From positions 12,679 through 76,678 of the forward strand of contig CAZGTU010000001.1 in the NCBI GenBank assembly GCA_964528675.1: a stretch of 64,000 nt of DNA, given 5' to 3'. A program made the position numbers and the translations under genes. A model generated the notes under the pieces. The model was not told where the DNA came from. It was given only the letters and a program-made list of their open reading frames with translations, and made no database searches. Positions 201 through 42,445 of the stretch are shown here, piece by piece (the stretch's first letter is position 1; each line of letters opens with the position of its first letter). The DNA is from an uncultured Bacteroidaceae bacterium (GTDB lineage: Bacteria; Bacteroidota; Bacteroidia; Bacteroidales; GCA-2748055).

Positions 201-1557
201 CATAAACTGTCTTCACATTTACAAACTCTCTTATTCCTTCGGAAGACAATTCCCTGCCGTAGCCGGAGCGCTTGACTCCTCCAAAAGGAAGCCTGGGATC
301 GGATTTTACCATTGCATTGATAAACACTGCTCCTTCACTGGCATTGTCGATAAATAGTTGTGCGTTTTTTTCAGAGCCGGTAAATACATTTATACCGAGG
401 CCAAAAGTTGAATTATTAGCTAATTCAAGCGCCTCTTCGGGAGATTCTACAGGGGGTGAAACTGCGAAAACAGGTCCGAAAACCTCTTCATCAAAAGCAG
501 TCATGCCTGGTTTGACACCGGCAAGGATTGTGGGTTCGAAAAAAGCTTTTTCTCTTATACCCCCGGTAATTATTTCAGCTCCCTGTTGCTTGGATTCAAT
601 GACCTGTTCTTCCACTATTTCAGCCTGAGTAACGGATGATAAAGGACCGATGTCAATATCTTCATCTTTCGGATCACCTACCACATATTCTTCCACCCTC
701 TTTTTCAGTTCTTCCATAAATTCATCATAAACTGATTCTTCAACGATAAATCTCTTTGCAGCAATACAGCTCTGTCCTCCGTTTTGTAACCTTGCTGTAA
801 GAGCAACCTCAACTGCATTTTTAAGATTACTGTCGGCAAGAACTACGAAAGCATTGCTACCCCCTAATTCCAGTACGGATTTCTTGATTTGTTTACCGGC
901 AGTTTCTGCAACTGCAGCGCCGGCAGTTTCACTTCCGGTAAGGGTTACAGCTCTTACAACGGGACTTTCAATTATCTTATTCACCTTTGACGAGCCAATT
1001 GCCAGATTCTGGAATACTCCTTTTTCAAAACCGGCCTTCAGAAATAATTCTTCAATTTTCTCTGCACACCCCTGTACATTGGACGCATGTTTCAAAAGTG
1101 CTGTATTGCCGGCCATTACTGTTGGTGCTGCAAAACGAAAAACCTGCCAGAATGGAAAATTCCAGGGCATTACAGCCAGTATTGTTCCAATGGGCTCATA
1201 CTTAACATAGCTTTTTTCAGCATTAGTTTCAATCGTTCTCGTTGAAAGAAAATCTTCTGCATTTTCTGCATAATATTCACAAACCCATGCACATTTTTTG
1301 ACTTCGGCACGGGACTCGCTTATGACTTTACCCATTTCTTCCGTCATCAGGATTGCAAGCTCTTCAACATTGCTTTTTAATAATTCAGCAACTTTGAACA
1401 TTTTAGCTGACCTTTCTTCAAAACTGGTGGTTCGATAAATCTTATAAGTTTCACCTGCCTGCTCCAGTATCTTCGCAATAGTATCACTATCTATTTCCGG
1501 ATATTCAGCAATTTTTTCTCCCGAATAAGGATTTATTGATTTTAATTTTTTTGCCAT
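181..1557 (-). CDS. NAD(P)+-dependent aldehyde dehydrogenase (succinate-semialdehyde dehydrogenase-like)
   Basis: 458 aa ORF. ALDH catalytic motifs are present: LELGGSNAF (Glu) and GGQSCIAAKRF (Cys). N-terminus resembles GabD-type ALDHs. Confidence 0.85.
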   Translation of the reverse strand: MAKKLKSINPYSGEKIAEYPEIDSDTIAKILEQAGETYKIYRTTSFEERSAKMFKVAELLKSNVEELAILMTEEMGKVISESRAEVKKCAWVCEYYAENAEDFLSTRTIETNAEKSYVKYEPIGTILAVMPWNFPFWQVFRFAAPTVMAGNTALLKHASNVQGCAEKIEELFLKAGFEKGVFQNLAIGSSKVNKIIESPVVRAVTLTGSETAGAAVAETAGKQIKKSVLELGGSNAFVVLADSNLKNAVEVALTARLQNGGQSCIAAKRFIVEESVYDEFMEELKKRVEEYVVGDPKDEDIDIGPLSSVTQAEIVEEQVIESKQQGAEIITGGIREKAFFEPTILAGVKPGMTAFDEEVFGPVFAVSPPVESPEEALELANNSTFGLGINVFTGSEKNAQLFIDNASEGAVFINAMVKSDPRLPFGGVKRSGYGRELSSEGIREFVNVKTVYVEEFKG

Positions 1558-9316: not shown

Positions 9317-11866
9317 TTGCCTATGGAAAACACCAAACTTGACCTGGCTTATCGTTTTGTGAATTACACCGGTGAAAACATTTTCCTCACCGGAAAGGCA
9401 GGAACGGGAAAAACGACTTTTTTGCACAACATTAAAAGAAAAGGTTTGAAAAGGGCAGTGGTTGTAGCTCCTACGGGTGTTGCCGCTATTAATGCAGGTG
9501 GTGTGACCATACATTCCTTCTTCCAGATGCCTTTCGGTCCCATTATTCCGGAAACACAAAGAAACTCTACTCAGCGAGATAAATCCTCATTTCAGCGAAA
9601 GTTTAATAAAGAAAAGATAAACATCATCAAAAGCATGGATTTGCTGATCATTGATGAGATCAGTATGGTGAGGGCTGATCTGTTGGATGGCATTGATGAA
9701 GTTTTACGCAAATACAGGGATCACGAAAAACCTTTCGGCGGGATACAATTATTGATGATAGGTGACCTTGAGCAGCTTGCTCCTGTTGTTAAAGAAGATG
9801 AGTGGATGCTTTTAAGAGATCATTATCAGAATGCTTTTTTCTTCAGCAGTAAAGCATTGCAAAAGACAAATTTTGTAAGCATTGTGCTCGACCATGTATA
9901 CAGGCAAAGCGACCAGAGTTTCATTGCAATACTTAATAAGGTAAGGAACAAAGACCTTGATAGTGAGTCAATTCAAAAATTAAACAGCAGGTACATCCCG
10001 GGTTTTATTAAAGAAGATCAAGAAGGCTATATAATTCTCACCACTCATAATGCCACGGCAAGAAATATCAATAAAACCCGGTTGGATCTTTTATCCCATA
10101 AAACCCGGACATTTGAAGCCGAAATTGTCGGCGATTTTCCCGAGCACTCCTTCCCTACTGACCCCATACTTGAACTCAAAACCGGTGCCCAGGTAATGTT
10201 TGTAAAAAATGACCAGTCGAAGGAAAAAAGATACTTTAACGGGAAGATCGGCGTCATTGTTGAAATGGAAGAAGACACCGTCTTTATAAAATGCGAAGGA
10301 GAAGAGGATGTAATTGGTGTAGATCCTGTGGAATGGGAGAACATGAAATACAGCATCGACAGGAATACGAAGGAGATCAGTGAAAAAGTTACCGGTACTT
10401 TCACCCAGCTACCCCTGAAATTAGCATGGGCCATCACCATTCACAAAAGTCAGGGATTAACTTTTGAAAAAGCCATTATTGATGCCGCGGCTTCATTTGC
10501 TCACGGCCAGGTTTATGTAGCTCTCAGTCGTTGCAAAAGCCTGGAAGGAATGGTGCTTAACACTCCCATTGACCCATCATGTTTCATTCACAACTCCGAA
10601 GTGACCGGTTTTACTCAGAATGTGGAAAACAATCCTCCCAACGAAAATCACCTCTCACGTGCAAGAAAAGCATTTGAAGAGAATCTTCTGACGGAGCTAT
10701 TCGGTTTCAAACAAATTAATTTTGTTCTTTTAAAATTGAAAAAAGATCTCGATTCACACAGTAGAATAGTTGTGGGTAATCTTCGGCAGATCATTGAAAG
10801 TTTGCACCCTTTGTTTGCAAAGGATATACTTACAATATCTGAACGTTTTCATCCCAAAATCAGACAGATGCTCAGGGAAAATATGGAGTTGGACAAGAAC
10901 CTGAGATTGCAGGAAAAGATTTCCGGAGCTTCCGCTTATTTCCAGGATAAGTTGAAAAACATCCTTGGTGAGAAAATTGAAAATGCAGAATTTGAGACTG
11001 ATAATCAAGAGGTAAAAAAGCTTATAAACAATTCGGTTGATCAGATCCGTCAGCTTATACATTTTAAAAATACCTGTTTAAAGGCCTGTCAAAATGGCTT
11101 TGATCTTGCCAGTTATCTTGAAGTCAAAGCCAAAGCCCAGTTGGAAGAATTACCCAAAAAGAAAAAGACCTCCGTTTCGGAAAAAATTGAGACTGGTGAT
11201 ATTGGCGATGTCCGAAATCCAAAGCTATACAAAGATCTTATTCGTTGGAGGAACAGGGTGGCAGAGGAAAAATCCCTTCCCCACTATATGGTAATGCAGT
11301 TGAAACCCTTAATCACCTTGAGTAATTATGCACCAACCACCTTAAAAGAAATGAAGAGAATAAAAGGCATAGGAAAGGGAAAACTGAAAGCATACGGGGA
11401 AGAGCTCATACAGATCATCCAGTTGTCCGGTGCAGCCAACACCTTAAAGGTTGAAGAGCAGAAACCCAATGTTTCAAAAACGAAGGACAAAAAGAAAGGA
11501 TCAGGAGAAGAATTAACAAATGAAAATAAGAAAGAAGTAAAGAAAACCAGGGCAGAAAAAACCCCAACTGCTGATATTAGTTACAGAATGTATAATTCAG
11601 GTATGAGCATTGAAGATATCGCGAAAGAAAGAGGCCTGGTTGTCAGTACAATTGAAGGACATCTTGCGGAAAAGATAAAAGAAGGATTGCTTGACATTTC
11701 AGATTTTGTTGAGAACGAAAAGATCAACAAGATAAAAGAGTATTTTTCTCGCACAGAAAGCAATAAATTAACCGATGCAAGGGAGGCCCTTGGCGAAGAA
11801 TACTCATTTGCCGAGTTGAAATATACGCGAAAATATCTGGAGCGCGAAGAGAATAAGCATATATGA
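9317..11866 (+). CDS. Pif1/RecD-like AAA helicase with HRDC domain and C-terminal helicase-associated HTH
   Basis: 849 aa. Walker A GKAGTGKTT, DEISMV (Walker B), an HRDC-like segment (LYKDLIRWRNRVAEEKSLPHYMV...IKGIGKGKLKAYG) and a C-terminal HTH (SIEDIAKERGLVVSTIEGHL). Confidence 0.8.
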   Translation: MPMENTKLDLAYRFVNYTGENIFLTGKAGTGKTTFLHNIKRKGLKRAVVVAPTGVAAINAGGVTIHSFFQMPFGPIIPETQRNSTQRDKSSFQRKFNKEKINIIKSMDLLIIDEISMVRADLLDGIDEVLRKYRDHEKPFGGIQLLMIGDLEQLAPVVKEDEWMLLRDHYQNAFFFSSKALQKTNFVSIVLDHVYRQSDQSFIAILNKVRNKDLDSESIQKLNSRYIPGFIKEDQEGYIILTTHNATARNINKTRLDLLSHKTRTFEAEIVGDFPEHSFPTDPILELKTGAQVMFVKNDQSKEKRYFNGKIGVIVEMEEDTVFIKCEGEEDVIGVDPVEWENMKYSIDRNTKEISEKVTGTFTQLPLKLAWAITIHKSQGLTFEKAIIDAAASFAHGQVYVALSRCKSLEGMVLNTPIDPSCFIHNSEVTGFTQNVENNPPNENHLSRARKAFEENLLTELFGFKQINFVLLKLKKDLDSHSRIVVGNLRQIIESLHPLFAKDILTISERFHPKIRQMLRENMELDKNLRLQEKISGASAYFQDKLKNILGEKIENAEFETDNQEVKKLINNSVDQIRQLIHFKNTCLKACQNGFDLASYLEVKAKAQLEELPKKKKTSVSEKIETGDIGDVRNPKLYKDLIRWRNRVAEEKSLPHYMVMQLKPLITLSNYAPTTLKEMKRIKGIGKGKLKAYGEELIQIIQLSGAANTLKVEEQKPNVSKTKDKKKGSGEELTNENKKEVKKTRAEKTPTADISYRMYNSGMSIEDIAKERGLVVSTIEGHLAEKIKEGLLDISDFVENEKINKIKEYFSRTESNKLTDAREALGEEYSFAELKYTRKYLEREENKHI

Positions 11867-11983
11867 TCTTAAGTCAGAGCTTTGGGCAATGCTGTCTATT
11901 TTCCGGTGAAGCTATTCAAGTCTTTTTCCAGGAAATAATAACCCCATACTTTATTTGATGTTTTATTCCGGGCTGGTCGAACA

Positions 11984-12015
11984 GACCCTTAGGGTTTAAG
12001 ACCCTAAGGGTTTAA
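11984..12015. repeat. REP-like palindromic pair (GACCCTTAGGGT / GACCCTAAGGGT) upstream of the RAYT gene
   Basis: Two 12-mers at 11984-11995 and 12000-12011. They are reverse complements of each other and each is self-complementary (ACCC..GGGT). Confidence 0.7.
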
Positions 12016-17578: not shown

Positions 17579-17627
17579 CAGACCCTCAGGGTTTAAAACC
17601 CTCGGGGTTTTAAACCCTGAGGGTCTG
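17579..17627. terminator. Perfect 23-bp-stem hairpin (REP-family sequence) between convergent genes; probable bidirectional terminator
   Basis: CAGACCCTCAGGGTTTAAAACCC-TCG-GGGTTTTAAACCCTGAGGGTCTG. Carries the same GACCCTCAGGGT core as the RAYT-flanking repeats. Confidence 0.6.
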
Positions 17628-20378: not shown

Positions 20379-22100
20379 ATGCCTGTTCACAATAAAGATA
20401 TCGCTGATATTCTATTCGAAGTAGCCGACTTTCTGGACCTTAAAGGAGAAAATGAGTTCAGAATCAGATCATACAGAGACGCTGCCCGCACCATTTCTGA
20501 AGGATCAGAAAGCATTGTAAAAAAAGCTCGCAATGAAGAAGATATTTCTTCCCTGCCGGGTATAGGAAAAAGCATGGCTGAAAAGATACGGGAAATCGCA
20601 AAAACCGGAACACTCAAACAACTGGAAAAAATCAAAGAAGATATTCCTCCCTCGCTTATAGATATAATGAAGCTTGAACAATTGGGTTCTGAGCGCACCA
20701 GAATATTGCACGAGAAACTGAACATTGAAACCATCGAAGATCTGAGGGAAGCGGCGGAAGAAGAAAAAGTTGAAAAGATAAAAGGCTTTGGCAAGAAGAT
20801 ACAAAAAAATATACTCCGTGAAATAAAAGAATTTTCAAAAAAAGGATAATCCAGACGTTTCAAACTCGCTGATGCAGTAAAATATGCATCATCAATCATA
20901 GAATATCTGGATAAAAAGACAGATAAGCTTACCCTCGCAGGTAGTACACGAAGGATGAAAGATAATATCGGGGATATTGATCTTGTTGCCACCAGCCGTG
21001 ATTCCAAAGAAGCAATGAAACATTTTACAGACTATGAAGATACAGATCATGTTCTGGCACATGGAGAAACAAAATCTTCCATCAAATTAAAGAATGGGCT
21101 TCGTATCGACTTGCGTCTGGTTAGTAAACGTTCGCTTGGAGCGGCCATCTTGTATTTTACCGGTTCGAGAGCTCATACCCTCGCCCTACGTAAACTGGCC
21201 CAGGGCAAAGACCTGAAGCTTAGCGAATATGGCCTGTTTAAAGGGAAGAAAAGAGTGGCCGGAAAAACGGAAACAAGAATTTATAAAAAACTGGGCTTAC
21301 AATTCATAGAACCTGAATTAAGAGAGAATAAGGGGGAAATTAATGCCGCTGCGAAAAATAAGCTTCCCGATCTGATTCATATACAAGACATTAAAGGAGA
21401 TCTTCACACCCATACAAAAGCCTCTGACGGCAAATACAGTCTTGAAAAAATGGTAAAAAAAGCAAAAGATATGGGTTATGAATATTACGCCATTTCAGAA
21501 CATTCAAAGAAAGTGGCAATGGCGAACGGGCTGACCGAAAAAAGGCTCAGAAATCAAATGGAAGAAATTGACCGGCTCAACGAAAAAATGAAAAAGATAA
21601 AAATATTAAAATCCATTGAAGTCGATATCCTTGAAGACGGCAAACTGGATTTTTCCAATGATATCTTAAAGGAACTGGACCTGGTCATCTGTTCCATCCA
21701 TTATAACCTTAATCTTTCCAAAGAAAAGCAGACAAAACGAATAGTAAAAGCCATGGATAATCCTTACTTCAATATTCTTGCCCACCCGACCGGCAGAAGG
21801 ATAGGAGAAAGAGATGAGATAAACATCGATCTGGATAAAATAATGAATGAGGCCGGGAAAAAGAACTGCTTCCTGGAAATTAACTCCCATCCCGACAGGC
21901 TTGATCTCAGGGATAAATATATCCGGATGGCCAAAGAGAAAGGAGTAAAAATGGCTATATCCACCGACGCCCACTCAAAAGCCAATCTGGAAAATATGCG
22001 ATATGGCGTAGCCCAGGCACGCAGAGGATGGCTGGAGAAAAATGATGTGATAAACACCCGTTCATGGAAGGAATTAAAAAAGCTTTTGAAAAGAAATTAA
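20379..22100 (+). pseudogene. polX: DNA polymerase X with C-terminal PHP phosphoesterase domain, interrupted by one in-frame TAA (20847-20849)
   Basis: ORFs 20379-20849 and 20955-22100 are in the same frame, and translation across the gap is continuous (..SKKG*SRRFKLADAVKYASSIIEYL..AGSTRRMKDNIGDIDLV). The N-terminal HhH 8-kDa/fingers region, the GDIDLV catalytic aspartates and the PHP motif GDLHTHT are all intact. Confidence 0.8.
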
Positions 22101-22106
22101 ATACCC

Positions 22107-24173
22107 ATGGCCTCAAATCCATATAAAAAAACTCCATTTCCTGAGTTTGAAAAGCTCAACAGCCTATCAAAAAAACAGGCAGAAAAAGAGATCAGACAAC
22201 TGAGAGATGCCATAAATTATCATGATCACAGGTATTATATTAAAAATGATCCCGTGATTTCCGATAAAGCCTACGATACTTTGCTTCACAGGCTTGAGGA
22301 AATTGAAGACAAATACCCGGACCTGAAAACGGAAACTTCCCCTACACAAAAAGTCGGGGCACCCCCCGTTGACAAATTGAAAAAGAAAGAGCATAAAGCC
22401 ATTATGCTCAGTCTTAATTCCTCTGATAAAGAGAAAAAGATCAGGGAATTCATTGATTCCGTCAAAAAACTCACCGGACTAAAAAAACCGGAACTGGTAC
22501 TGGAACCAAAACTGGATGGATTGTCTGTAGAAGTTTATTACGAAAATGGCCGCTTTTCTTATGCAACCACCCGCGGAGATGGAAAAACGGGTGAGGATAT
22601 ATCTGAAAATGTAAAAACCATTTCCTCGCTCCCCCTTCAATTACGCAATAATGATTATCCGAATTCCATTGCTTTTCGAGGTGAGATTTTCATGCCCCTG
22701 GATGCCTTCCGTAAAATCAACAAAGAAAAGATCGAAAAAAATGAAGATCCTTTTGCCAATGCAAGAAATGCTGCTGCCGGTATTGTAAGGCAACTCGATT
22801 CGAAAAAAGTTGCAAAAATGCCGCTCGATATCTTTTTCTATGAAATAATGGCTTCCAATGAAGACGGGGTTAAAAGTCATTACGAAATGTTGAAAAAACT
22901 CCCGGAATGGGGACTGAAAACAAATACCATTGTCGAAAAGTGTGATAGCTTTAAAAAAATAAAATCTTACTATTCTGATTTATCTAAAAAAAGAGATGAA
23001 CTTTCCTTTGAGATTGATGGCATAGTCATTAAATTGAATGATCGGAAGTTAAGAGAAAAAGCAGGCATAAGGGAAAGGTCTCCCCGTTGGGCCTATGCCT
23101 GGAAATTCACGCCAAAAAAAGAAAAAACCATTCTGCGTGATATTGTCATCCAGGTAGGAAGAACAGGAACACTTACCCCGGTAGCACTCTTTGATCCGGT
23201 GGATGTTGGAGGAGTTACCGTAAGCCGGGCAACTTTGCATAATGAAGAAGAGGTGAAGAAAAAAGATGTGAGAACAGGTGATAAAGTCCTGATCCAGAGA
23301 GCAGGTGATGTGATCCCTGAAGTGGTGAAAAGAGTTGAAAAAGCCGGAAAAGGAAGAGGAAAAGCTTTTGAAATGCCATCAAAATGCCCTGTGTGCAACA
23401 CAAAAATTAAAAAAGAAGGGGCTTATAATATTTGTCCTGCAGGTCTTGCCTGTGAAGCCCAGCTCAAAGGAACATTATCCCATTTTGTTTCAAAAGGAGC
23501 CATGAACATTGAAAATATGGGTGAAAAGAATATCTCTATGTTAGTGGATGAAGGCATGGTAAAAAGCATTGCGGATATTTACAAACTGAAAAAACCGGAT
23601 ATCATGAAGCTGGAAGGATTTGGAGAAAAATCTGCTGAAAAACTGATTGACGCCATCCGGAATTCCCGCAATCCTGCCCTTTCCGATTTTATTTATGCAC
23701 TTGGAATCAGGCATACAGGAAAACATATTGCCCTTTTGCTTGCCGGTCATTTTCACAGTCTGAAAAATATCCGAAAAGCAAGTTTCAGGGAAATCAGATC
23801 CATTCATGAGATTGGAGATGAAATTGCTGAAAGCATCATTAATTTCTTCGATGCAGAAAAAAACCAAAAAATGCTGGATGAGCTTCAAGATCTGGGCGTG
23901 AGAGTAAAAACAGAGAAAGGGAAAAAATCCGACCAGCTTTCCGGAAAAACTTTTGTTATAACTGGTAAGCTTGAAAGATATTCAAGGGATGAAATCAAAG
24001 AAAAGATTGAAACACTGGGTGGAAATGCCACGTCGAGCATAAGCAGCAATACAGATTATCTAATTGTTGGTGAAGATCCCGGCAGCAAGCTTGATGATGC
24101 AAAAGAGAACAATGTTCAGATAATTAATGAGGATGAATTCAATAAGATGATTGAATCCAAAAACAAAAAATAA
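22107..24173 (+). CDS. ligA: NAD+-dependent DNA ligase
   Basis: 688 aa. Adenylation motif EPKLDGLS, OB fold, Zn finger (CPVCNT...CPAGLAC), HhH repeats and a C-terminal BRCT domain. Starts 6 nt after the PolX stop. Confidence 0.95.
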   Translation: MASNPYKKTPFPEFEKLNSLSKKQAEKEIRQLRDAINYHDHRYYIKNDPVISDKAYDTLLHRLEEIEDKYPDLKTETSPTQKVGAPPVDKLKKKEHKAIMLSLNSSDKEKKIREFIDSVKKLTGLKKPELVLEPKLDGLSVEVYYENGRFSYATTRGDGKTGEDISENVKTISSLPLQLRNNDYPNSIAFRGEIFMPLDAFRKINKEKIEKNEDPFANARNAAAGIVRQLDSKKVAKMPLDIFFYEIMASNEDGVKSHYEMLKKLPEWGLKTNTIVEKCDSFKKIKSYYSDLSKKRDELSFEIDGIVIKLNDRKLREKAGIRERSPRWAYAWKFTPKKEKTILRDIVIQVGRTGTLTPVALFDPVDVGGVTVSRATLHNEEEVKKKDVRTGDKVLIQRAGDVIPEVVKRVEKAGKGRGKAFEMPSKCPVCNTKIKKEGAYNICPAGLACEAQLKGTLSHFVSKGAMNIENMGEKNISMLVDEGMVKSIADIYKLKKPDIMKLEGFGEKSAEKLIDAIRNSRNPALSDFIYALGIRHTGKHIALLLAGHFHSLKNIRKASFREIRSIHEIGDEIAESIINFFDAEKNQKMLDELQDLGVRVKTEKGKKSDQLSGKTFVITGKLERYSRDEIKEKIETLGGNATSSISSNTDYLIVGEDPGSKLDDAKENNVQIINEDEFNKMIESKNKK

Positions 24174-28914: not shown

Positions 28915-29524
28915 TATTTCGTCTTTAACACCCCCCGGTCCGCCTAGGCGGAGGAGTCGCAAAGGATTAATTAACAACTTAGCAAAGTCCTCTTTAGAGC
29001 CTGTCCCGATTTATCGGAAGATTTTTGACCGGTTCAGATGAATGAAATCGACACAATACTTTTATTCGCACCATGCTAAAATTGAAATCCATTTATGGAC
29101 ATCCATACTGGAAATTGTAGAGCTAAATCATTTTTTTTTCTGCGATTCGGAGCAATTTGCCCACTTTTACTTTATTAATTACCTTAACAAGAGAGAGGTT
29201 TCTCACCCCCAGGAGCAGAGTGAGAGTGAGAATGAGAGCGAGATTTCCTCAATGAACATTGATTTATTTGGGCGCTTACTTCTAATATTCATGTTTTTTT
29301 TGCCAGAATATTTTGAAGCACCTTCTGTAGGATTGTTCCTATAGGCGCAACAGAGGCATGAAAAATATTTCAACTTTAAAAATTTGTTTGGTTCTGGCTT
29401 GTTCAGTTTAGGCTGTAAATGTCTTGATTAGATTCAAATCATTATAAGCTTACATGGCTGTTTTTATGCAACTTACTAAAATTTGTTATATGAGAGTGTA
29501 CAACTAATGGGTGATCTTCAGGCC

Positions 29525-29672
29525 CAATGGTCCACCTCCATGGTCCATCGTCCATCCCCGTCACTAAAGTCGCTTCCATCGCTTACGTCCCTTACGTCGC
29601 TTCCATCGCCCATATCGCTCTCTCCATGGTCTATGGTCCATCCCATCCCCCATCATCCCACCTCAATCTCTT
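29525..29672. repeat. Stutter island (C-rich on the plus strand, G-rich on the minus strand) overlapping the 3' end of the GH95 gene
   Basis: Repeated short words: CCATGGTCCA/CCATGGTCTATGGTCCA, GTCGCTTCCATCGC x2, TTACGTC x2 and CCCATCCC runs. Shares CTCCATGGTCTAT(T)GTCCAT with the island at 40312-40345 (opposite strand). Confidence 0.6.
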
Positions 29673-32048
29673 AACCCCCTTCACTTCCGTCTCAAATGAC
29701 TTAACATCCTTCTGGTATCTTATGGTGCATGGAAGGCCGGCCCTGGAAAAAACCTCTACCTTATCAAGCTTACCATCGCTCCATGCAATATTCAGGATGA
29801 AATCTCCTCTTGCCTTTATACCCTTTACTTCACCATCTTTCCATGAGGAAGGGATTGCAGGAAGAATTTCAATTTCTTCACCATGGCTTTGCACTAACAT
29901 CTCAGCAATACCGGCTGTTCCTCCAAAATTTCCATCGATCTGGAAAGGTGGGTGAGTATCAAAAAGGTTGGGAAGGGTTGAAATCTGCAGCAGTTTTGTC
30001 AGATGATTGTATGCCTCTTCACCATTTTTCAAACGTGCATAAAAATTAACCGTCCATGCACGGCTCCAGCCGGTTCCCGCTCCACCATGGCGAAGTCTTT
30101 TTTCAATTGTTCTTTCTGCAGCTTCAAATAATAGCGGAGTTTCTTCTGTAATAACAGTTCCCGGATGCAAGGCCAGCAGATGAGATATATGCCTGTGCCC
30201 CGGTTCAAATTCCTCGTAATCATGAATCCATTCCTGAATTGTACCATCAGCACCAATCTGTATCGGTGGAAGTCTGCCAAGCGTTTTCTCTATTTCTTCC
30301 CTGAGACCGGTATCATTACCCAGTATATCAAGAGCCTCCAGGTTGTATTTGAATAATTCCCTTATGATCATGATATCCATTGTTGGAGCATAAGTGAGCT
30401 GCATGGGGCCACCGGTATCCGGATCCTTAAAAGCATTTTCGGGAGAATAAGAAGGTGATGTTACAAGATAAGCTTCCGGACTTTCAATAAGAAAATCCAG
30501 TATAAATTCAGTAGCTCCTCTCATTAAGGGCCAGGCTTCATTTCTCAGATATGCAGTATCCCGGCTGAATTCAAAATGACGCCACACCGGTAGACAAACC
30601 CATGCAGCAGCTATGGGAAACATTCCCCACTTCACCGATGCATTCAGGGCAGTAAAACCAAAAGGATCTGTAACATGATGAATGGTCCAGCCACCGGCAT
30701 CATACATTTTCGCGGCAGTTACCCTGCCCGGTTGTTTAAGCTCATTAAAAAACTCAACATAAGGTTTGAAAGTTTCCGGCAAATTACAAACCTCAGCAGG
30801 CCAGTAGTTCATTTGTAAATTTATGTTGGTATGGAAATCGGAATCCCAAGGAGCATTAAAATGATGGTTCCAGATGCCCTGAAGATTCGCAGGAAGCCGG
30901 GCAAAAAACCCTGAGCTTCCCATAAGCAGATAACGTCCATACTGAAAATACAAAGCCATAAGGTCGTCATCTGTCACTCCGCCTTTCACTCTTTCCAGCC
31001 TTTTGTCAGTTGGAATTGAATCCATAGCCATATCACCCAGATCAATACTCATTCTTTCAAATACCGGACGATGCCGGTCAATATGTCTTTCCTCCAGTTC
31101 TTCGTAATTATCAGAAGGTAAGCTACCGAGCAATTTCATGCAAAGCTGAAGGGGTTCAATAGATCGGTCAAAATTTAAGAAATCCCGGTTATAATCGGTA
31201 AAGGCTGTCAGTGCCAGGGTAAGCTCTCCTGCATTCCTGATTTCAAAATATTTCCCATTTGCCTCATATTCTCCATCAGTATTCAACACCTTCAAAACCG
31301 AAGCAAAACGCATATGCTCACCACCAGGGCCTCTTTCAGCATCGGGTTGATCAATTATCTGTCCCTGCATGACAAGATGTCCCTCTTCACCGGGAAAGGT
31401 CTCCGCATCCTTCTCCCTTTCCATATAAATTTTCAAGCTCAGATCTTTTTTATCTTCTTTCTTTAAATGAATAATGATCACATTGTCTTTTGCGGAAGCG
31501 AATACTTTTCTGGAATATATATTTTCACCGGATCTGTACTGTACATTACTGATCCCCCTGTTCAAACTGAGTTCTCGCTTATACGCAGATACTGCTTTGG
31601 GCTCGTTTAGATCTTCGATAATAATATTCCCAAATATCTGATAAGAACGTATTCTCGGAGGTGTGCCAAGAAGATATTTTTCTGCCAGTTCATAGGCTTC
31701 ATTATTTTTGCCTTCGAAAAGAAGTCTTCGGATTTCGGGCAAATAGGTAAGAGCTTCAGGATTATTGGCATCCTTTTGCGAACCGGCCCATAGACTTTCT
31801 TCATTAAACTGAATGGTATCCATCTTGATGTTCCCGAATACCATAGCTCCCAGCCTTCCGTTTCCTACAGGAAGAGCTGTAACCCAGCCATCTGCAGGCT
31901 GTTTATACCACAACCTCCGCCCGGGGTTATCGCTATTCTTGCCAAACCGGGGATTATTGCATGAAACTAAAAAAAAGAACAGGGAGAAAATTATAAAATG
32001 TTTTCCCGGAAAGGTTTTTTCAAGGGAGAAGGACTTTGAATGTATCAT
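29631..32048 (-). CDS. Glycoside hydrolase family 95 (alpha-L-fucosidase / alpha-L-galactosidase)
   Basis: 805 aa with a signal/lipobox. N-terminal LWYKQPA..W..ALPVGNGRLGAMVFG...E.IQFNEESLW signature of GH95, and size typical of the family. The last ~14 codons run into the stutter island. Confidence 0.85.
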   Translation of the reverse strand: MIHSKSFSLEKTFPGKHFIIFSLFFFLVSCNNPRFGKNSDNPGRRLWYKQPADGWVTALPVGNGRLGAMVFGNIKMDTIQFNEESLWAGSQKDANNPEALTYLPEIRRLLFEGKNNEAYELAEKYLLGTPPRIRSYQIFGNIIIEDLNEPKAVSAYKRELSLNRGISNVQYRSGENIYSRKVFASAKDNVIIIHLKKEDKKDLSLKIYMEREKDAETFPGEEGHLVMQGQIIDQPDAERGPGGEHMRFASVLKVLNTDGEYEANGKYFEIRNAGELTLALTAFTDYNRDFLNFDRSIEPLQLCMKLLGSLPSDNYEELEERHIDRHRPVFERMSIDLGDMAMDSIPTDKRLERVKGGVTDDDLMALYFQYGRYLLMGSSGFFARLPANLQGIWNHHFNAPWDSDFHTNINLQMNYWPAEVCNLPETFKPYVEFFNELKQPGRVTAAKMYDAGGWTIHHVTDPFGFTALNASVKWGMFPIAAAWVCLPVWRHFEFSRDTAYLRNEAWPLMRGATEFILDFLIESPEAYLVTSPSYSPENAFKDPDTGGPMQLTYAPTMDIMIIRELFKYNLEALDILGNDTGLREEIEKTLGRLPPIQIGADGTIQEWIHDYEEFEPGHRHISHLLALHPGTVITEETPLLFEAAERTIEKRLRHGGAGTGWSRAWTVNFYARLKNGEEAYNHLTKLLQISTLPNLFDTHPPFQIDGNFGGTAGIAEMLVQSHGEEIEILPAIPSSWKDGEVKGIKARGDFILNIAWSDGKLDKVEVFSRAGLPCTIRYQKDVKSFETEVKGVKRLRWDDGGWDGP

Positions 32049-32097
32049 TGGAGAAGGGTTTTAAATATTTTTCAAATATAAGATGATGATTGAAAAC

Positions 32098-33231
32098 TCA
32101 AAACTTTATCCTCAACCTCACCTCTCTTTCTTCTCCTGCATCAAGAGTCTCTTCACCGGGAACACTCTCATCTGTATTCCCATCGTGATCAAGTGAACCT
32201 GAACCAATCTCAATCCCAATGCCGTCCCAGTTTTTCTCCAGCAATGATTTTCCATTCTTCAGAATAAACTCATCCGATCCGGCTCCACCACAGCAGGACC
32301 ATGTCTGGAAATATGGCGTTGGTGGAACAAAAAGCTCAATATCCCTGCCATCAGGATGTTTTATTATCACCTTATATTCTTCCTTACCATTAGTTTTTAC
32401 TTTTTTAACTTCTTTATGGATAATTCCGGTTTCTTCTCTTCTACCGGGTCGTGTAGAAGGTAACCACACTTCGGGTTCTTTCCCAATCACACCATTACCC
32501 CTGAGCTGTCTTTTTTCCGATTCAACAATAATTTCTGATCCCGGCTCAGGGAAGAAAGTGATATGATATCCCCAATCGGGAAGTATTTCTTCACCCGAAA
32601 TGTTTTTGAATGAATCGATTACCTCCAACTCCGGTTCTTTTGCAATATTCAATTCAAATGATTTCCGGATCCGGTAAAGGGGAGTTCCATTCTCGTACCA
32701 TGGTTGTGGATCCGCTTGCTTCATCTCCCGGTAAATATATTCAGTACTTATCTTAATCTTATCATCAAAAATTTCAAGCTGAACTTCATCAACTGGTATA
32801 TTCGATGTTTCACCGTGAAGTGGATATATCCTGCCCGTTCTCTCTTCCTGGTAAGGCATTCCCCAATTCTTCATTCCATAAAACTCAATTCCGGCAGCAA
32901 AAGTTGGTATATACGCAAATCCCGGGGAGGGTACATTATTGATCATTACCTCTTCAGACCACAGATCAAGTTCTTCCGGATCAGGCAGATCGTAGGGAGC
33001 ATCCCAGAAGAGTTTTTTCCCTTTATAGATAATCTGCCCGAGTGAAAGCCCTTTTGAGGGTAAAAATTCAGCTTTAACATTATTTTTTTCAACCAGAAGT
33101 CTGTTCACTCCTTCTGGTTCTTCATCTTTATGATATAATGTAATTCTAAGACCAGATTCATCTGCAAGGGTTTTCACTCCATCGATCTTCTGCTTGCATT
33201 GAATTTTAAAGCTATTTGTTCCTGTTTTCAT
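32098..33231 (-). CDS. Hypothetical protein, possibly aldose-epimerase-like (DUF4432-like)
   Basis: 377 aa with no signal peptide. The assignment is only a weak by-eye resemblance. Embedded in the glycan operon. Confidence 0.3.
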   Translation of the reverse strand: MKTGTNSFKIQCKQKIDGVKTLADESGLRITLYHKDEEPEGVNRLLVEKNNVKAEFLPSKGLSLGQIIYKGKKLFWDAPYDLPDPEELDLWSEEVMINNVPSPGFAYIPTFAAGIEFYGMKNWGMPYQEERTGRIYPLHGETSNIPVDEVQLEIFDDKIKISTEYIYREMKQADPQPWYENGTPLYRIRKSFELNIAKEPELEVIDSFKNISGEEILPDWGYHITFFPEPGSEIIVESEKRQLRGNGVIGKEPEVWLPSTRPGRREETGIIHKEVKKVKTNGKEEYKVIIKHPDGRDIELFVPPTPYFQTWSCCGGAGSDEFILKNGKSLLEKNWDGIGIEIGSGSLDHDGNTDESVPGEETLDAGEEREVRLRIKF

Positions 33232-39221: not shown

Positions 39222-40163
39222 TCAGTTTTCGTTAAGTAGTTTCTGAGCAGTTATATTATCGGTAATGAGTACGTTTACAAGATTGGCTTTTGCCACTGCC
39301 CTGAGGACTTCATATTTCTCATCTCCTCCGGCTATTCCGATTATTCTTGGTATTGCCCTGAGCTCTTGCGAGCTAATCCCAACTACTCTGTCATCGAGCG
39401 GAGTTGAAATGAACTCTCCCTTCCTATTAAAAAACCTGAGCGAAATATCACCCACGGCCCCGGCTTTTTTAATCTGATTGAATTCTTCAGCACTTAAAAT
39501 ATTATTATCCCTTATAAGCTGGGAATCTTTATCAAACAAACCAATTCCCACAACAGCAATATCGGCATTCACAGCCATATTCAAGGTATCCTTCACCTGT
39601 ATGTCATTTTTCAGCTCCTTGCAAATCCCTGAAGTTTTCACTATTCCCGGTGAATGGATCAGCCAGGGCCTGGTTCCAAAGTTTTGGGCCATCCGGCGTG
39701 TAAGATCTGCACCATGGTAACCGGACTGAGGCTGACCGAGTCCGCCAAGCATTTGCACCACTTTAAGATCCGGATAATTCTGCACCGGCAAATTATCCAC
39801 AAGGCTCAATAAAGAACGCCCCCATGTAAGACCGATGATTTCATTCCCGGTGATAACTGACCTAAGGTACTCTGCTGCTTCAAAACCGGCTCTGCTAATC
39901 CAATTATCTGTATTATGATCCGGATTTTCAACAATAATAAGCTCATTCAATTGATATTTTTCTTCCAGTTCATGCTCCAGTTCAATATAAGGATTATCAG
40001 GTTCAACAATCTTTATCTGAACGATCTTCTCCTTTTGCGCTTTTGCGAGCAAACGGGAAACTTTGATCCTGGATATTCCATAACGATTGGCAATAGCCTG
40101 CTGCGTCATACCTTTCTCGTAATAAGCCCTTGCAACTTTATAAATAAGACTGTCAGAATTCAT
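39222..40163 (-). CDS. SorC/DeoR-type sugar-binding transcriptional regulator
   Basis: 313 aa. N-terminal HTH ([21 protein letters not shown]) plus a sugar-binding domain (GLTWGRS..., AVVGIG). First gene of the minus-strand operon. Confidence 0.85.
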
Positions 40164-40241
40164 TTGATCATTTGTTCGGTTTTGTTCATTTGAACATTCT
40201 TAGACAAATCTATGGGATATTATTTAGAAAAGCAAGGGGGG

Positions 40242-40311
40242 AAGAGGTAAGAAGTAAGAGGTAAGAGGTAAGAAGTAAGAAGTAAGAAGTAAGAAGTAAG
40301 GGGTAAGGGGT
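40242..40311. repeat. Tandem array of ten 7-nt units (AAGRRGT)
   Basis: Reads aagaggt aagaagt aagaggt aagaggt aagaagt aagaagt aagaagt aagaagt aaggggt aaggggt, head to tail. Lies 79-148 nt upstream of the SorC-regulator ATG at 40163 (minus strand). Confidence 0.9.
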
Positions 40312-40430
40312 GAGCATAGACCATGGACAATAGACCATGGAGGGAGGAGGTGAACAGTGAAGAGCCCTTCAACTGTCGCTCAGCGACCGGGTAGGAGTAA
40401 ACGGTGAAGGGTGAACAGTGAAGGGTAAAC
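40312..40430. repeat. Stutter island continuing from the heptamer array
   Basis: ATAGACCATGGA x2 (period 14), GGTGAACAGTGAAG x2 (40348 and 40408) and GTGAAGGGT words. C-poor on the plus strand. Confidence 0.6.
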
Positions 40431-41082
40431 AATCAAGGCATTCATAGCCAAATGAAGTAACTACCCCCCGGCCCCTAAAAGGCATACGTGTCAACTTAAG
40501 CACAAACATTATGCGCAAGCGTAAGGTTTTGACCGCCGGTAACCGACGCGAAAGCCAGTACAATGGTAAGCGGGAACAATTCTCCTGTTACCCTCTCCGG
40601 GTGATACGGCCCCGCCGTGGCGGACTTTTATCTAACTACTTTCTGTAAATCCTTTATATATTTCAGACAATTTTATCCGTTTTGGTTCAGTATTATGTTT
40701 CAATACTTTAATCAGCTTTAATTCTAATCAGCTTTAATTCTTCCAAATCGTGCAAAATCCCCAAAGCCTTCCTGTTGGTTAACTCTATAAGTATCGTGTT
40801 TTTCATGGGTCTATTCATTTAACGTGCAACAAGCTTTGAATTTTTGTTTTAGCGATATACGCATCTATTAAAGAATAGTACAATTTTTTTATCTTCTGTT
40901 TAAACGTTTTTGCACATTTTTAGTCAAAAACAATCTATGAAAGTATGCTAATCCTTTAGGAATTACTAGTGTTTAATATCCATCCCGAAGCAAATTCAGC
41001 GAATTCTCCAAAAAAATATCCAATATACCCACCTTAGATCCACTAAATTTCATAAATTTATACAAATCAAATACTTCCACTC

Positions 41083-41622
41083 ATGAAAACCACAATTTGG
41101 ACAGGCATTTTAGTTTTCATCGGATGGGCAATCTTCAGCAATTACTGGTATGTGTGTAAAATCAAAGATCTTTGTGGAGATGAGCTTACCGCCGTCACCG
41201 CAATGGATGAATCCAGCACCCTGCCAGATACGACTGCTGAACAACGCAGAGCTGAAGAAGAGGCAGAAAAAGAAGCCGCCCTTATCCGTTCCATTGAACA
41301 AACCGTCATTTACTTTGCTTTCGATTCATCCTATGTGCTGAATCAAAGTCAGCTCAGTAATCTTACCCGCGAAGTAAACACTCTCTCTCCCGGACTTGTC
41401 GTACTGGAAGGTCACTGTTGCAATATTGGCACAGAAACCTATAATATGGAACTGGGACAGCGAAGAGCCGACCGTGTTAGAAGAGCTCTCGTTGATCAGG
41501 GAATATCTCCGCAAAACATCTCCACCATTTCTTACGGTGAAGAACAACCTGCAATTCCCAATACCAGTGAGGAAAACCGTGAAAAAAACCGAAGGGTTGA
41601 AATCATCATTAAAGAAAAATAA
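41083..41622 (+). CDS. OmpA-family peptidoglycan-binding protein with N-terminal membrane anchor
   Basis: 179 aa with one N-terminal TM helix. The C-terminal OmpA_C-like domain ends in NRRVEI. Confidence 0.8.
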   Translation: MKTTIWTGILVFIGWAIFSNYWYVCKIKDLCGDELTAVTAMDESSTLPDTTAEQRRAEEEAEKEAALIRSIEQTVIYFAFDSSYVLNQSQLSNLTREVNTLSPGLVVLEGHCCNIGTETYNMELGQRRADRVRRALVDQGISPQNISTISYGEEQPAIPNTSEENREKNRRVEIIIKEK

Positions 41623-41627
41623 ATACC

Positions 41628-42266
41628 ATGGAAAAATTAAGCGCCATTTTTCAGATCTCAATTTTGTTAATTGTTGCATTTCTTATCGGAATAGTAATGA
41701 CATGGGTGTATTGGCGGATAAAATACCGGAAGTTAAAAGATGAAACCGAACAGAAAGCAAAGGAACAGGAAAGACTCCGCATGGAATTGCAGCAAAGCAT
41801 CGATCAACTTAGCACCGATAACAGGGAATTAAAAGAAGAGCTGGAAGAAGTCAGAGATAAGAATATTCTTCTTATGAAGGAATATGTCCCCAGTAAGCTT
41901 TATACCACCATAGTAAAAAATATGGGTGAAGGTGTCTCTGTAAGCGATGAAAACGGTTTCTTCCTGGTGTATAATCCTAAGCTTGAACAAATAACAGGTT
42001 TTACTCGCGAGGAGGCTAATAAACATAAAGACAAAATCTTCCTGAATTCAATCTATCCCGATGATGATATCCGGCAAAAAGTAGCAGAGGATATAGAAAA
42101 TATATCTGAGGCACAGGAGCATACTAATATTAAAACCACCATCACAACAAAGGACAACAAAAAAGTTCCTGTGCTTGTTACATCAACAGTGGTGAGCTAT
42201 TACGGCAAAAAGTATTATTTGTCGGTATTCAGAGATGTGTCGGAGGAGCCGAGGGTGGAGGAGTAG
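41628..42266 (+). CDS. Membrane-anchored coiled-coil / PAS domain protein
   Basis: 212 aa. N-terminal TM helix, a charged coiled coil and a C-terminal PAS-like fold (GEGVSVSDENGFFLVYNPKLEQITGFTREE). No output domain. The last codons enter a G-rich stutter island. Confidence 0.65.
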   Translation: MEKLSAIFQISILLIVAFLIGIVMTWVYWRIKYRKLKDETEQKAKEQERLRMELQQSIDQLSTDNRELKEELEEVRDKNILLMKEYVPSKLYTTIVKNMGEGVSVSDENGFFLVYNPKLEQITGFTREEANKHKDKIFLNSIYPDDDIRQKVAEDIENISEAQEHTNIKTTITTKDNKKVPVLVTSTVVSYYGKKYYLSVFRDVSEEPRVEE

Positions 42267-42425
42267 GATGATGTGGTGGGATAATGAGGGAATGGGAGTA
42301 GAGCCGATTATAGCAACCGGTCATCGAGCGGTGGTTGGTGAGCGGAGTCGAACTAAGTCGAGATGGGAGAATGTGGTAGGAGAATGTGGGGAGAGAACTT
42401 GGGGGGATGATTATAACAGTAGTTA
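42240..42425. repeat. Stutter island (G/A/T-rich, C-poor on the plus strand) starting inside the last codons of the PAS gene
   Basis: Repeated words GGAGGAG, GAGCGG, GTCGA and GGAGAATGTGG x2, plus several GGG tracts. Confidence 0.55.
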
Positions 42426-42445
42426 TTAACTAAATAATTAACATT

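Follow-up and report, generated by a model that had tools for sequence, protein, structure and literature searches.

The locus considered here raises the question of whether ten tandem heptamers in the promoter region of a SorC-led gene cluster act as a slipped-strand expression switch, as the preliminary description had suggested, or whether they are a by-product of the process that generates the repeat-rich stutter islands around them. Within the window, which is the whole 64-kb stretch of DNA that was analysed, direct reading of 40242-40311 confirmed ten phased units of the AAGRRGT type, which on the + strand follow one another as AAGAGGT, AAGAAGT, AAGAGGT twice, AAGAAGT four times and AAGGGGT twice. 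In the SorC sense, they read ACCCCTT twice, ACTTCTT four times, ACCTCTT twice, ACTTCTT and ACCTCTT, with 27 C and no G in 70 nt; the feature as such was not assigned to a strand. TRF reported a period of 7 for the same interval (10.0 copies, 92% matches, score 91) as well as the higher-order periods of 14 nt (score 104) and 21 nt (score 112, the best). The pattern of three consecutive AAGRRGT units had eight exact overlapping matches in the 64 kb, all inside the array, compared to an expectation of 0.00 from 100 dinucleotide-preserving shuffles. The array is imperfect, since it is made of three unit types and its longest perfect run is four copies of AAGAAGT (28 nt); the longest perfect run in the arrays of the relatives likewise has four units. 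It is not the long uninterrupted tract of identical short units by which contingency loci are recognised. The array lies 79-148 nt upstream of the ATG of the minus-strand SorC-family regulator gene (39222-40163, with an HTH and a sugar-binding domain; Pfam PF04198, E = 3e-67), as had been described, and its placement in non-coding, promoter-adjacent DNA was also supported. A 70-aa ORF at 40220-40432 (-) was treated as spurious, as it consists of low-complexity repeats and its length varies by non-multiples of three between the relatives. The window sequence is the sole source for the full count of ten units. A Logan assembly from another run has five promoter-proximal units and a flank that are identical to the window and then ends at a unit boundary within the array, for which heterogeneity and low coverage are both possible reasons. 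An assembly artefact was rejected as the source of the array and its position, since independent Logan and ENA assemblies contain the array as well. Our favoured reading, which we consider reasonably probable, is that the array is a slippage-born and partly degenerate minisatellite in a dispensable spacer, and that the operon is controlled from a conserved promoter and operators downstream of it.

SorC is the first gene of an apiosidase/GH95 cluster, in which it is followed by the genes for an FGGY kinase, a DRL oxidoreductase, a Zn-ADH, a GH140 apiosidase, a glyoxalase, a DUF4432 protein and GH95. The gene content agreed with the eight-gene operon that had been proposed, but it is not certain that it forms a single operon because a second full Bacteroidota promoter pattern, TTG-N18-TATATTTG (32073-32101, -), lies 25 nt upstream of the GH95 start, and the cluster may comprise at least two transcription units. 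The consensus of Bacteroidota promoters is -33 TTTG and -7 TAnnTTTG, as summarised in PMC7366714. Based on this pattern and on conservation, a sigma-A-type promoter, TTG-N20-TAGATTTG, is predicted at 40205-40235 (-), with the -33 TTG at 40235-40233, a 20-nt spacer and the -7 box TAGATTTG at 40212-40205, and its transcription start site would be located near 40200. TAGATTTG is the only TAnnTTTG box, and thus the only perfect -7 element, in the 919-nt intergenic region. The pattern TTG-N17-21-TAnnTTTG occurs four times in the 64 kb, and three of these occurrences lie 25-47 nt upstream of a gene start; that of SorC ends 42 nt before the ATG. Both promoter elements are conserved in all of the close relatives (L033, L040-L046), and, judged by the consensus, the candidate has the box, the spacing of about 19-20 nt to a TTG-containing -33 element, the distance to the gene start and the conservation of a Bacteroidota sigma-A promoter, with a -33 element that reads TTGC as opposed to the consensus TTTG. 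The predicted 5' UTR contains an operator-like palindrome, TGTTCAAATGAACA (40182-40195, -), which is invariant in the close relatives, and a second operator-like site that is related to it, GAACAAATGATCA (40166-40178, -). Because TGTTCA/TGAACA half-sites are also found directly upstream of the start codon in relatives with 60-68% SorC identity, these palindromes are putative SorC operators that would mediate autoregulation. The promoter and the operator-like sites are conserved where the array is not. Scans of the region for sigma-70-type promoters and intrinsic terminators yielded no matches, and no tRNA or tmRNA was found. Rfam (15) yielded no gathering-score match in the whole window and only chance-level matches (E >= 2) in 40100-41150; for the 919-nt intergenic region, a riboswitch or other structured RNA was rejected because of these Rfam results and because its GC-rich segment folded no better than shuffles. 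A + strand small RNA made of the SD-like AAGAGGU units was also rejected, since the + strand has no TAnnTTTG box ahead of the array and neither a sigma-70-type promoter nor a terminator was found.

The position of the array relative to this promoter bears directly on the proposed switch or rheostat, in which the gain or loss of a 7-nt unit or of an adjacent C would move or resize the DNA upstream of the -33 element. A 6-bp G6/C6 homopolymer (40236-40241, without strand assignment) that reads C6 in the SorC sense separates the tandem heptamers from the -33 TTG, upstream of which they lie, and, counted from the predicted transcription start site, they extend from about -42 to -111; this closeness to the -33 element speaks for the switch. 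On the other hand, according to the consensus-based promoter call, the array lies neither in the -33/-7 spacer nor in the predicted 5' UTR, and, with the predicted promoter between the array and the ATG, changes in unit number therefore cannot alter the -33/-7 spacing. On the same call, the array does not occupy any of the places in which tract length matters at contingency loci, i.e., the spacer, the leader or ORF, or the interval between the promoter and an upstream site. A precedent for a switch is the heptanucleotide repeat (ATCTTTC)n of hmw1A/hmw2A in H. influenzae (PMC12721329; PMC8262952), which tunes hmw1A (PMC12721329). The SorC array resembles it in being a tandem 7-nt repeat that is pyrimidine-rich on the sense strand, belongs to the regulatory DNA ahead of an operon and has a unit length that is not a multiple of three. 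However, the hmw repeats are perfect, with a natural minimum of eleven repeats mentioned, they are located downstream of the promoter and are transcribed, their RNA pairs with a G-rich segment to form a 5'-UTR hairpin that is cleaved by RNase III, and their number varies during infection (PMC12721329). The SorC array is imperfect with a longest run of four, has its predicted promoter downstream and no G-rich partner in its leader, and is constant in five strains. An hmw-like mechanism was rejected, as no promoter pattern was seen on the SorC strand ahead of the array and the short leader lacks a G-rich segment with which the repeats could pair. Another arrangement to compare is that of the TAAA tract of N. 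meningitidis nadA, a repeat upstream of the -35 element that reportedly changes the geometry of operator and promoter. Like tracts of this type, the SorC array lies upstream of the core promoter, so its length would act via the upstream DNA and not via the spacer. In nadA-type systems, regulator or IHF sites have been defined beyond the tract, whereas nothing is conserved distal to the SorC array in three lineages. In Bacteroidales, phase variation by invertible promoters uses site-specific inversion at inverted repeats that flank a promoter (PMC10403206, PMC8748976). A switch at this locus would share with these invertible promoters the phylum and the stochastic control of operon expression, but none of their flanking inverted repeats were noted here, where no inverted-repeat scan was run. 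A repeat-number switch, if true, would be notable because phase variation in Bacteroidota is best known from invertible promoters, and it would place a catabolic operon for apiose or rhamnogalacturonan-II-type glycans under repeat-number control.

The comparison with the sister lineages, whose contigs were recovered through protein clusters, separated what is conserved at this locus from what is not. A SorC protein search of reference genome and metagenome collections revealed nothing closer than 60% identity, and the LigA of the window has 60% identity to its nearest named MAG proteins (Tangfeifania, Bacteroidales, Bacteroidota). In the SorC gene, L042 shares 95% of its nucleotides with the window, and the L033/L040/L041 group 92.5-93%. 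At the same position, the array has four units in L042, ten in the window and 17 in L033, L040, L041, L044 and L045, while it is absent in relatives with 60-68% SorC protein identity (L002, L034, L039). Lengths of 4, 10 and 17 units in three lineages are what slippage would produce, and in this respect the assumed mechanism of length change held up; they also count in favour of a switch. In both sister lineages, the promoter and the operators are almost unchanged and the heptamer array is at the same place, but distal to it the three lineages share no conserved sequence. In this place, the window carries a CCATGG stutter, the 17-unit lineage has a second copy of a 25-nt motif within a 48-nt tandem duplication, and the only match of the distal DNA of L042 is a 17-nt exact stretch, which is located about 2.7 kb away in L040. 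As the distal flanks are unrelated, there is therefore no upstream element that a 7-bp step could shift, and the proposed displacement of such an element relative to the core promoter found no support. In the 17-unit lineage, the FGGY, DRL and ADH genes and the catalytic domain of GH140 are deleted (L040 3943-4980 compared with window 39211-33219): after SorC, the correspondence jumps from window 39211 to 35320-35245 and then to 34121, which leaves SorC, a 120-aa C-terminal fragment of GH140 and the glyoxalase gene. The longest array thus precedes a gutted operon, which is more in line with relaxed or neutral evolution than with a switch that is tuned for glycan use. Moreover, this is a repressor-controlled catabolic operon, a type that is not known as a typical contingency locus.

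Copy number in related strains, by which a switch should be recognisable, differs between the lineages and is constant among close strains. All five full-length 17-unit assemblies (L033, L040, L041, L044 and L045), which are consensus assemblies, have exactly 17 units, even though 13-29 mismatches over 1.4-5.4 kb set these strains apart (98.4-99.4% identity). The only differences inside the array are two substitutions in L033, which is approximately the background rate. Differences in unit number are found only between lineages that are 5-7.5% diverged in the SorC gene, and across the five assemblies the copy number does not differ among close strains as it would at a contingency locus. The array length changes on the time scale of species divergence and not in clonal populations, a comparison that is drawn from consensus assemblies throughout, which do not reveal minority length variants in a population. 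Neighbouring ERZ accession numbers suggest that the 17-unit assemblies come from one project, so their independence may be incomplete, and the assembly of short reads through 119 nt of repeat is not always reliable. A control is provided by the G-rich stutter island that begins inside the last codons of a PAS-domain gene (42231-42429), which contains a 13-nt array, GGAGAATGTGGGG (window 42367-42397; L040 389-505; L045 264-406; L041 44-89). TRF counted 9.0 copies of it in L040, 11.0 in L045 and 3.5 in L041, and 2.4 in the window. The 13-nt array is truly hypervariable among strains that are about 99% identical, unlike the heptamer array, and because it varies on the same contigs, the assemblies are able to resolve differences in copy number. 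Two further Logan contigs, L043 and L046, break at what we read as an internal duplication of about 30 nt in the 17-unit array and therefore carry no information on heterogeneity. The homopolymer beside the -33 element does vary and constitutes a point for the switch: it reads C6TC5 in L040, L045 and L046 and C7TC5 in L033, L041, L043 and L044, all of these strains being about 99% identical. It is C6 in the window and absent in L042, and no other indel separates L040 from L041 over 5.3 kb. The constancy of 17 units while a neighbouring array varies could also mean that length is under selection, in which case the array would have a function. Taken together, the phase-variable slipped-strand switch is unsupported, given the promoter downstream of the array, the 17 units in five of five strains and the decayed operon, and we regard it as unlikely. 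Most likely, the array has no effect on expression, or only a weak one through a change of the DNA context upstream of the promoter.

The reading of the array as a slowly evolving minisatellite agrees better with its wider surroundings. The heptamer array is the best-preserved, promoter-proximal end of a tract of approximately 200 nt with 7-nt periodicity (40236-40440), and in the other 129 nt of this island (40312-40440), the autocorrelation has z = 5.6 at lag 7 and z = 5.1 at lag 14. The earlier statement that the array is the most regular part of a larger stutter island was thereby upheld. The periodicity was found separately on either side of the 25-nt motif, and the same signal is present in L040. 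Between the array and the motif, a degenerate 7/14-nt-periodic stutter occupies 40312-40363 (lag-7 z = 5.0 and a framed listing; no strand assigned), the sense strand of which consists of TCTTCACTGTTCACCTCCTCCCTCC followed by two copies of TCCATGGTCTATNG. Beyond the motif lies a distal degenerate heptamer stutter (40389-40440, likewise unstranded; lag-7 z = 3.5, lag-14 z = 5.7, TRF rows at 40397-40438) with the sense strand CCTTCAC TGTTCAC CCTTCAC CGTTTAC and so on. Longer words are occasionally common to different islands; a 20-nt one, ATAGACCATGGA..., is found at 40323-40342 and 29641-29622, with 19 of its 20 bases shared. The array has the features that define a neutral VNTR or minisatellite, i.e., degenerate tandem units, a lineage-variable number of units and restriction to a narrow clade. 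It is similar to the intergenic VNTRs that are used in MLVA typing in its imperfect units, higher-order structure, lineage-variable number, absence in distant relatives and location in a non-essential spacer. It differs from an ordinary VNTR in being embedded among strand-asymmetric (G-rich, C-poor) stutter islands with the 25-nt motif, and neither this setting nor the motif and the islands could be matched to a described repeat family. In the mechanism that we propose, a tract that is pyrimidine-rich in the SorC sense would grow as blocks of 7, 14 and 21 nt are duplicated through slipped-strand or unequal events, and would decay by point mutation, and the heptamer array would be its youngest and most homogeneous end. 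The tract would sit in a dispensable spacer that extends from a decayed toxin-antitoxin module to the SorC promoter, and the 25-nt motif may have landed in the tract or seeded it. The operon would be driven by the Bacteroidota -33/-7 promoter and controlled by the operator palindromes, both of which lie downstream of the array, and the evolution of the array would probably be near-neutral. The alternative already raised in the preliminary description, that the array is a by-product of the process behind the stutter islands, fits best, as the periodicity extends beyond the array and other islands also expand and contract. The locus thus illustrates how a promoter-adjacent repeat can mimic a contingency locus by its sequence and behave as a slowly evolving minisatellite.

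The 25-nt interspersed motif, GGTCGCTGAGCGACAGTTGAAGGGC, occurs once in the window (40364-40388, -), and the relatives have two tandem copies of it. In the form GGTCNCTGAGCGNCAGTNGAAGGGC (core CCTGAGCG..GTCGAAGGG), it recurs near stutter islands, i.e., at 40364-40388 in the window and at 203-220 (-), 2725-2742 and 2773-2790 in L040; apart from its tandem copies, L040 carries an inverted one near the PAS gene. A 20-nt core of the motif has exact matches in two unrelated viral (IMG/VR) contigs, L047 (9964-9983 and 10351-10370) and L048 (2734-2753), without any stutter there. The motif resembles what we take to be a widespread 'CCTGAGCGAAGCGAAGG'-type repeat that appears in spurious ORFs in many phyla. 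A test for REP/BIME elements, which was performed by eye on unfolded sequences, showed no hairpin that is common to the copies of the motif. A REP/RAYT origin was rejected, as the repeat beside the Y1_Tnp gene of L040 is a different, CCGGCCTGAAAGGCCAG-like one. In L040, the segment 5140-6183 carries this IS200/RAYT-like Y1_Tnp gene with REP-like hairpin repeats on both sides (CCGGCCTGAAAGGCCAG... and ...CCAGCCCAGGGCAGAG) that are unrelated to the 25-nt motif.

The strand asymmetry of the tract and the genes upstream of it bear on a different possible role, that of a transcriptional insulator, in which a C-rich and G-poor sense RNA would serve as a Rho loading (rut) region and stop read-through from the toxin-antitoxin module before the SorC promoter. 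The composition is suggestive, as the sense strand has a C/G ratio of 3.3 in the window (205 nt) and of 3.8 in L040 (231 nt), compared to 1.1 genome-wide, and the array has no G in its 70 nt. A rut region is at least 70-80 nt of untranslated, C-rich and G-poor RNA after a co-directional gene; the composition matches this description, and the position matches it in the relatives, in which the stop codon of a co-directional antitoxin/PIN pair (L040 2105-2690) upstream of SorC immediately precedes the island, with no intrinsic terminator in a simple scan from this pair to the SorC promoter. In the window, however, the upstream gene is degraded. An antitoxin gene remnant that is co-directional with SorC lies at 40646-40810 (-). 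Its counterpart in L040 (1957-2249, 87.7% identity) overlaps with the 5' part of a 71-aa antitoxin ORF, which is intact there and precedes the PIN toxin gene. The remnant in the window is disrupted by a perfect 16-nt tandem duplication, TAATCAGCTTTAATTC, at 40709-40741, and beyond it there are approximately 200-230 nt of unrelated GC-rich DNA. A GC-rich segment without a counterpart in the relatives, which was delimited by homology breakpoints (40441-40645, unstranded), occupies the place of most of the toxin-antitoxin module, and the RNA fold of 40440-40650 was not significant on either strand compared to shuffles (z = 0.17 and -0.29). The module is dead in the window, while in L040 the toxin has an internal stop codon, and L042 has only four units and no such upstream gene visible within 30 nt. 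In the other islands, the strand that is sense for the upstream gene (the PAS gene or GH95) is G-rich, and with this opposite polarity an insulator cannot explain the islands in general. Furthermore, the Rho preference is extrapolated from other phyla. We consider the insulator doubtful, with a small chance of being correct. Two independent Logan assemblies, L013 and L014 (SRR15425354 and SRR15425355), both end at window position 40613, inside a CCGCCGTGGCGG palindrome of the GC-rich segment; this shared end could be due to a graph branch, a repeat or a drop in coverage.

The same asymmetry might point to a functional DNA element, either a series of regulator-binding sites or a purine-pyrimidine tract in a non-B form that affects the opening of the promoter. 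Six of the seven bases of each unit are purines on the + strand, the 21-nt higher-order period, which had the best TRF score, corresponds to two turns of the helix, and the array has the same length in five strains. However, the unit sequences and their number differ freely between the lineages, a T in every unit breaks the homopurine mirror repeat, the heptamer is found nowhere else in the window and there is no evident candidate for a binding protein, which makes such an element very improbable.

What remains of interest besides the minisatellite is the family of dynamic stutter islands and the 25-nt motif in this uncultured lineage. The islands abut or overlap the 3' ends of ORFs and differ in period, with one of about 9 nt at 29520-29700, one of 13 nt at 42231-42429 and one of 15 nt at 165-194. 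They also turn over between lineages; an extra G-rich stutter upstream of an OmpA-family gene is present only in L040. A broader reading is that a lineage-specific and still active process makes strand-asymmetric (G-rich, C-poor) short-period arrays at gene boundaries, often beside the 25-nt motif, some of which vary between strains that are about 99% identical. Such arrays might be put to regulatory use as G-less Rho-loading insulators or as a length-tunable promoter context, and the constancy of 17 units would then reflect selection; we consider this quite unlikely. Two islands (29520-29700 and 29200-29245) are located in the convergent gap between PPK2 and GH95, and one island of this gap is C-rich on the + strand, has a period of about 9 nt (TCGCTTCCA/TCGCTTACG) and overlaps the last approximately 20 codons of GH95. 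The same window encodes a PIF1-family helicase with an HRDC domain (9317-11866), a PolX-type polymerase (20379-22100) with thumb and PHP domains, which is possibly split from an upstream ORF, and LigA (22107-24173); any link between these genes and the G-rich islands is pure speculation. Short palindromic tandem units with a 16-nt period (AAACCCTNAGGGTTT-like) were also observed at gene ends, at 11983-12015 and 17582-17624, and they may be terminators or another small repeat family.
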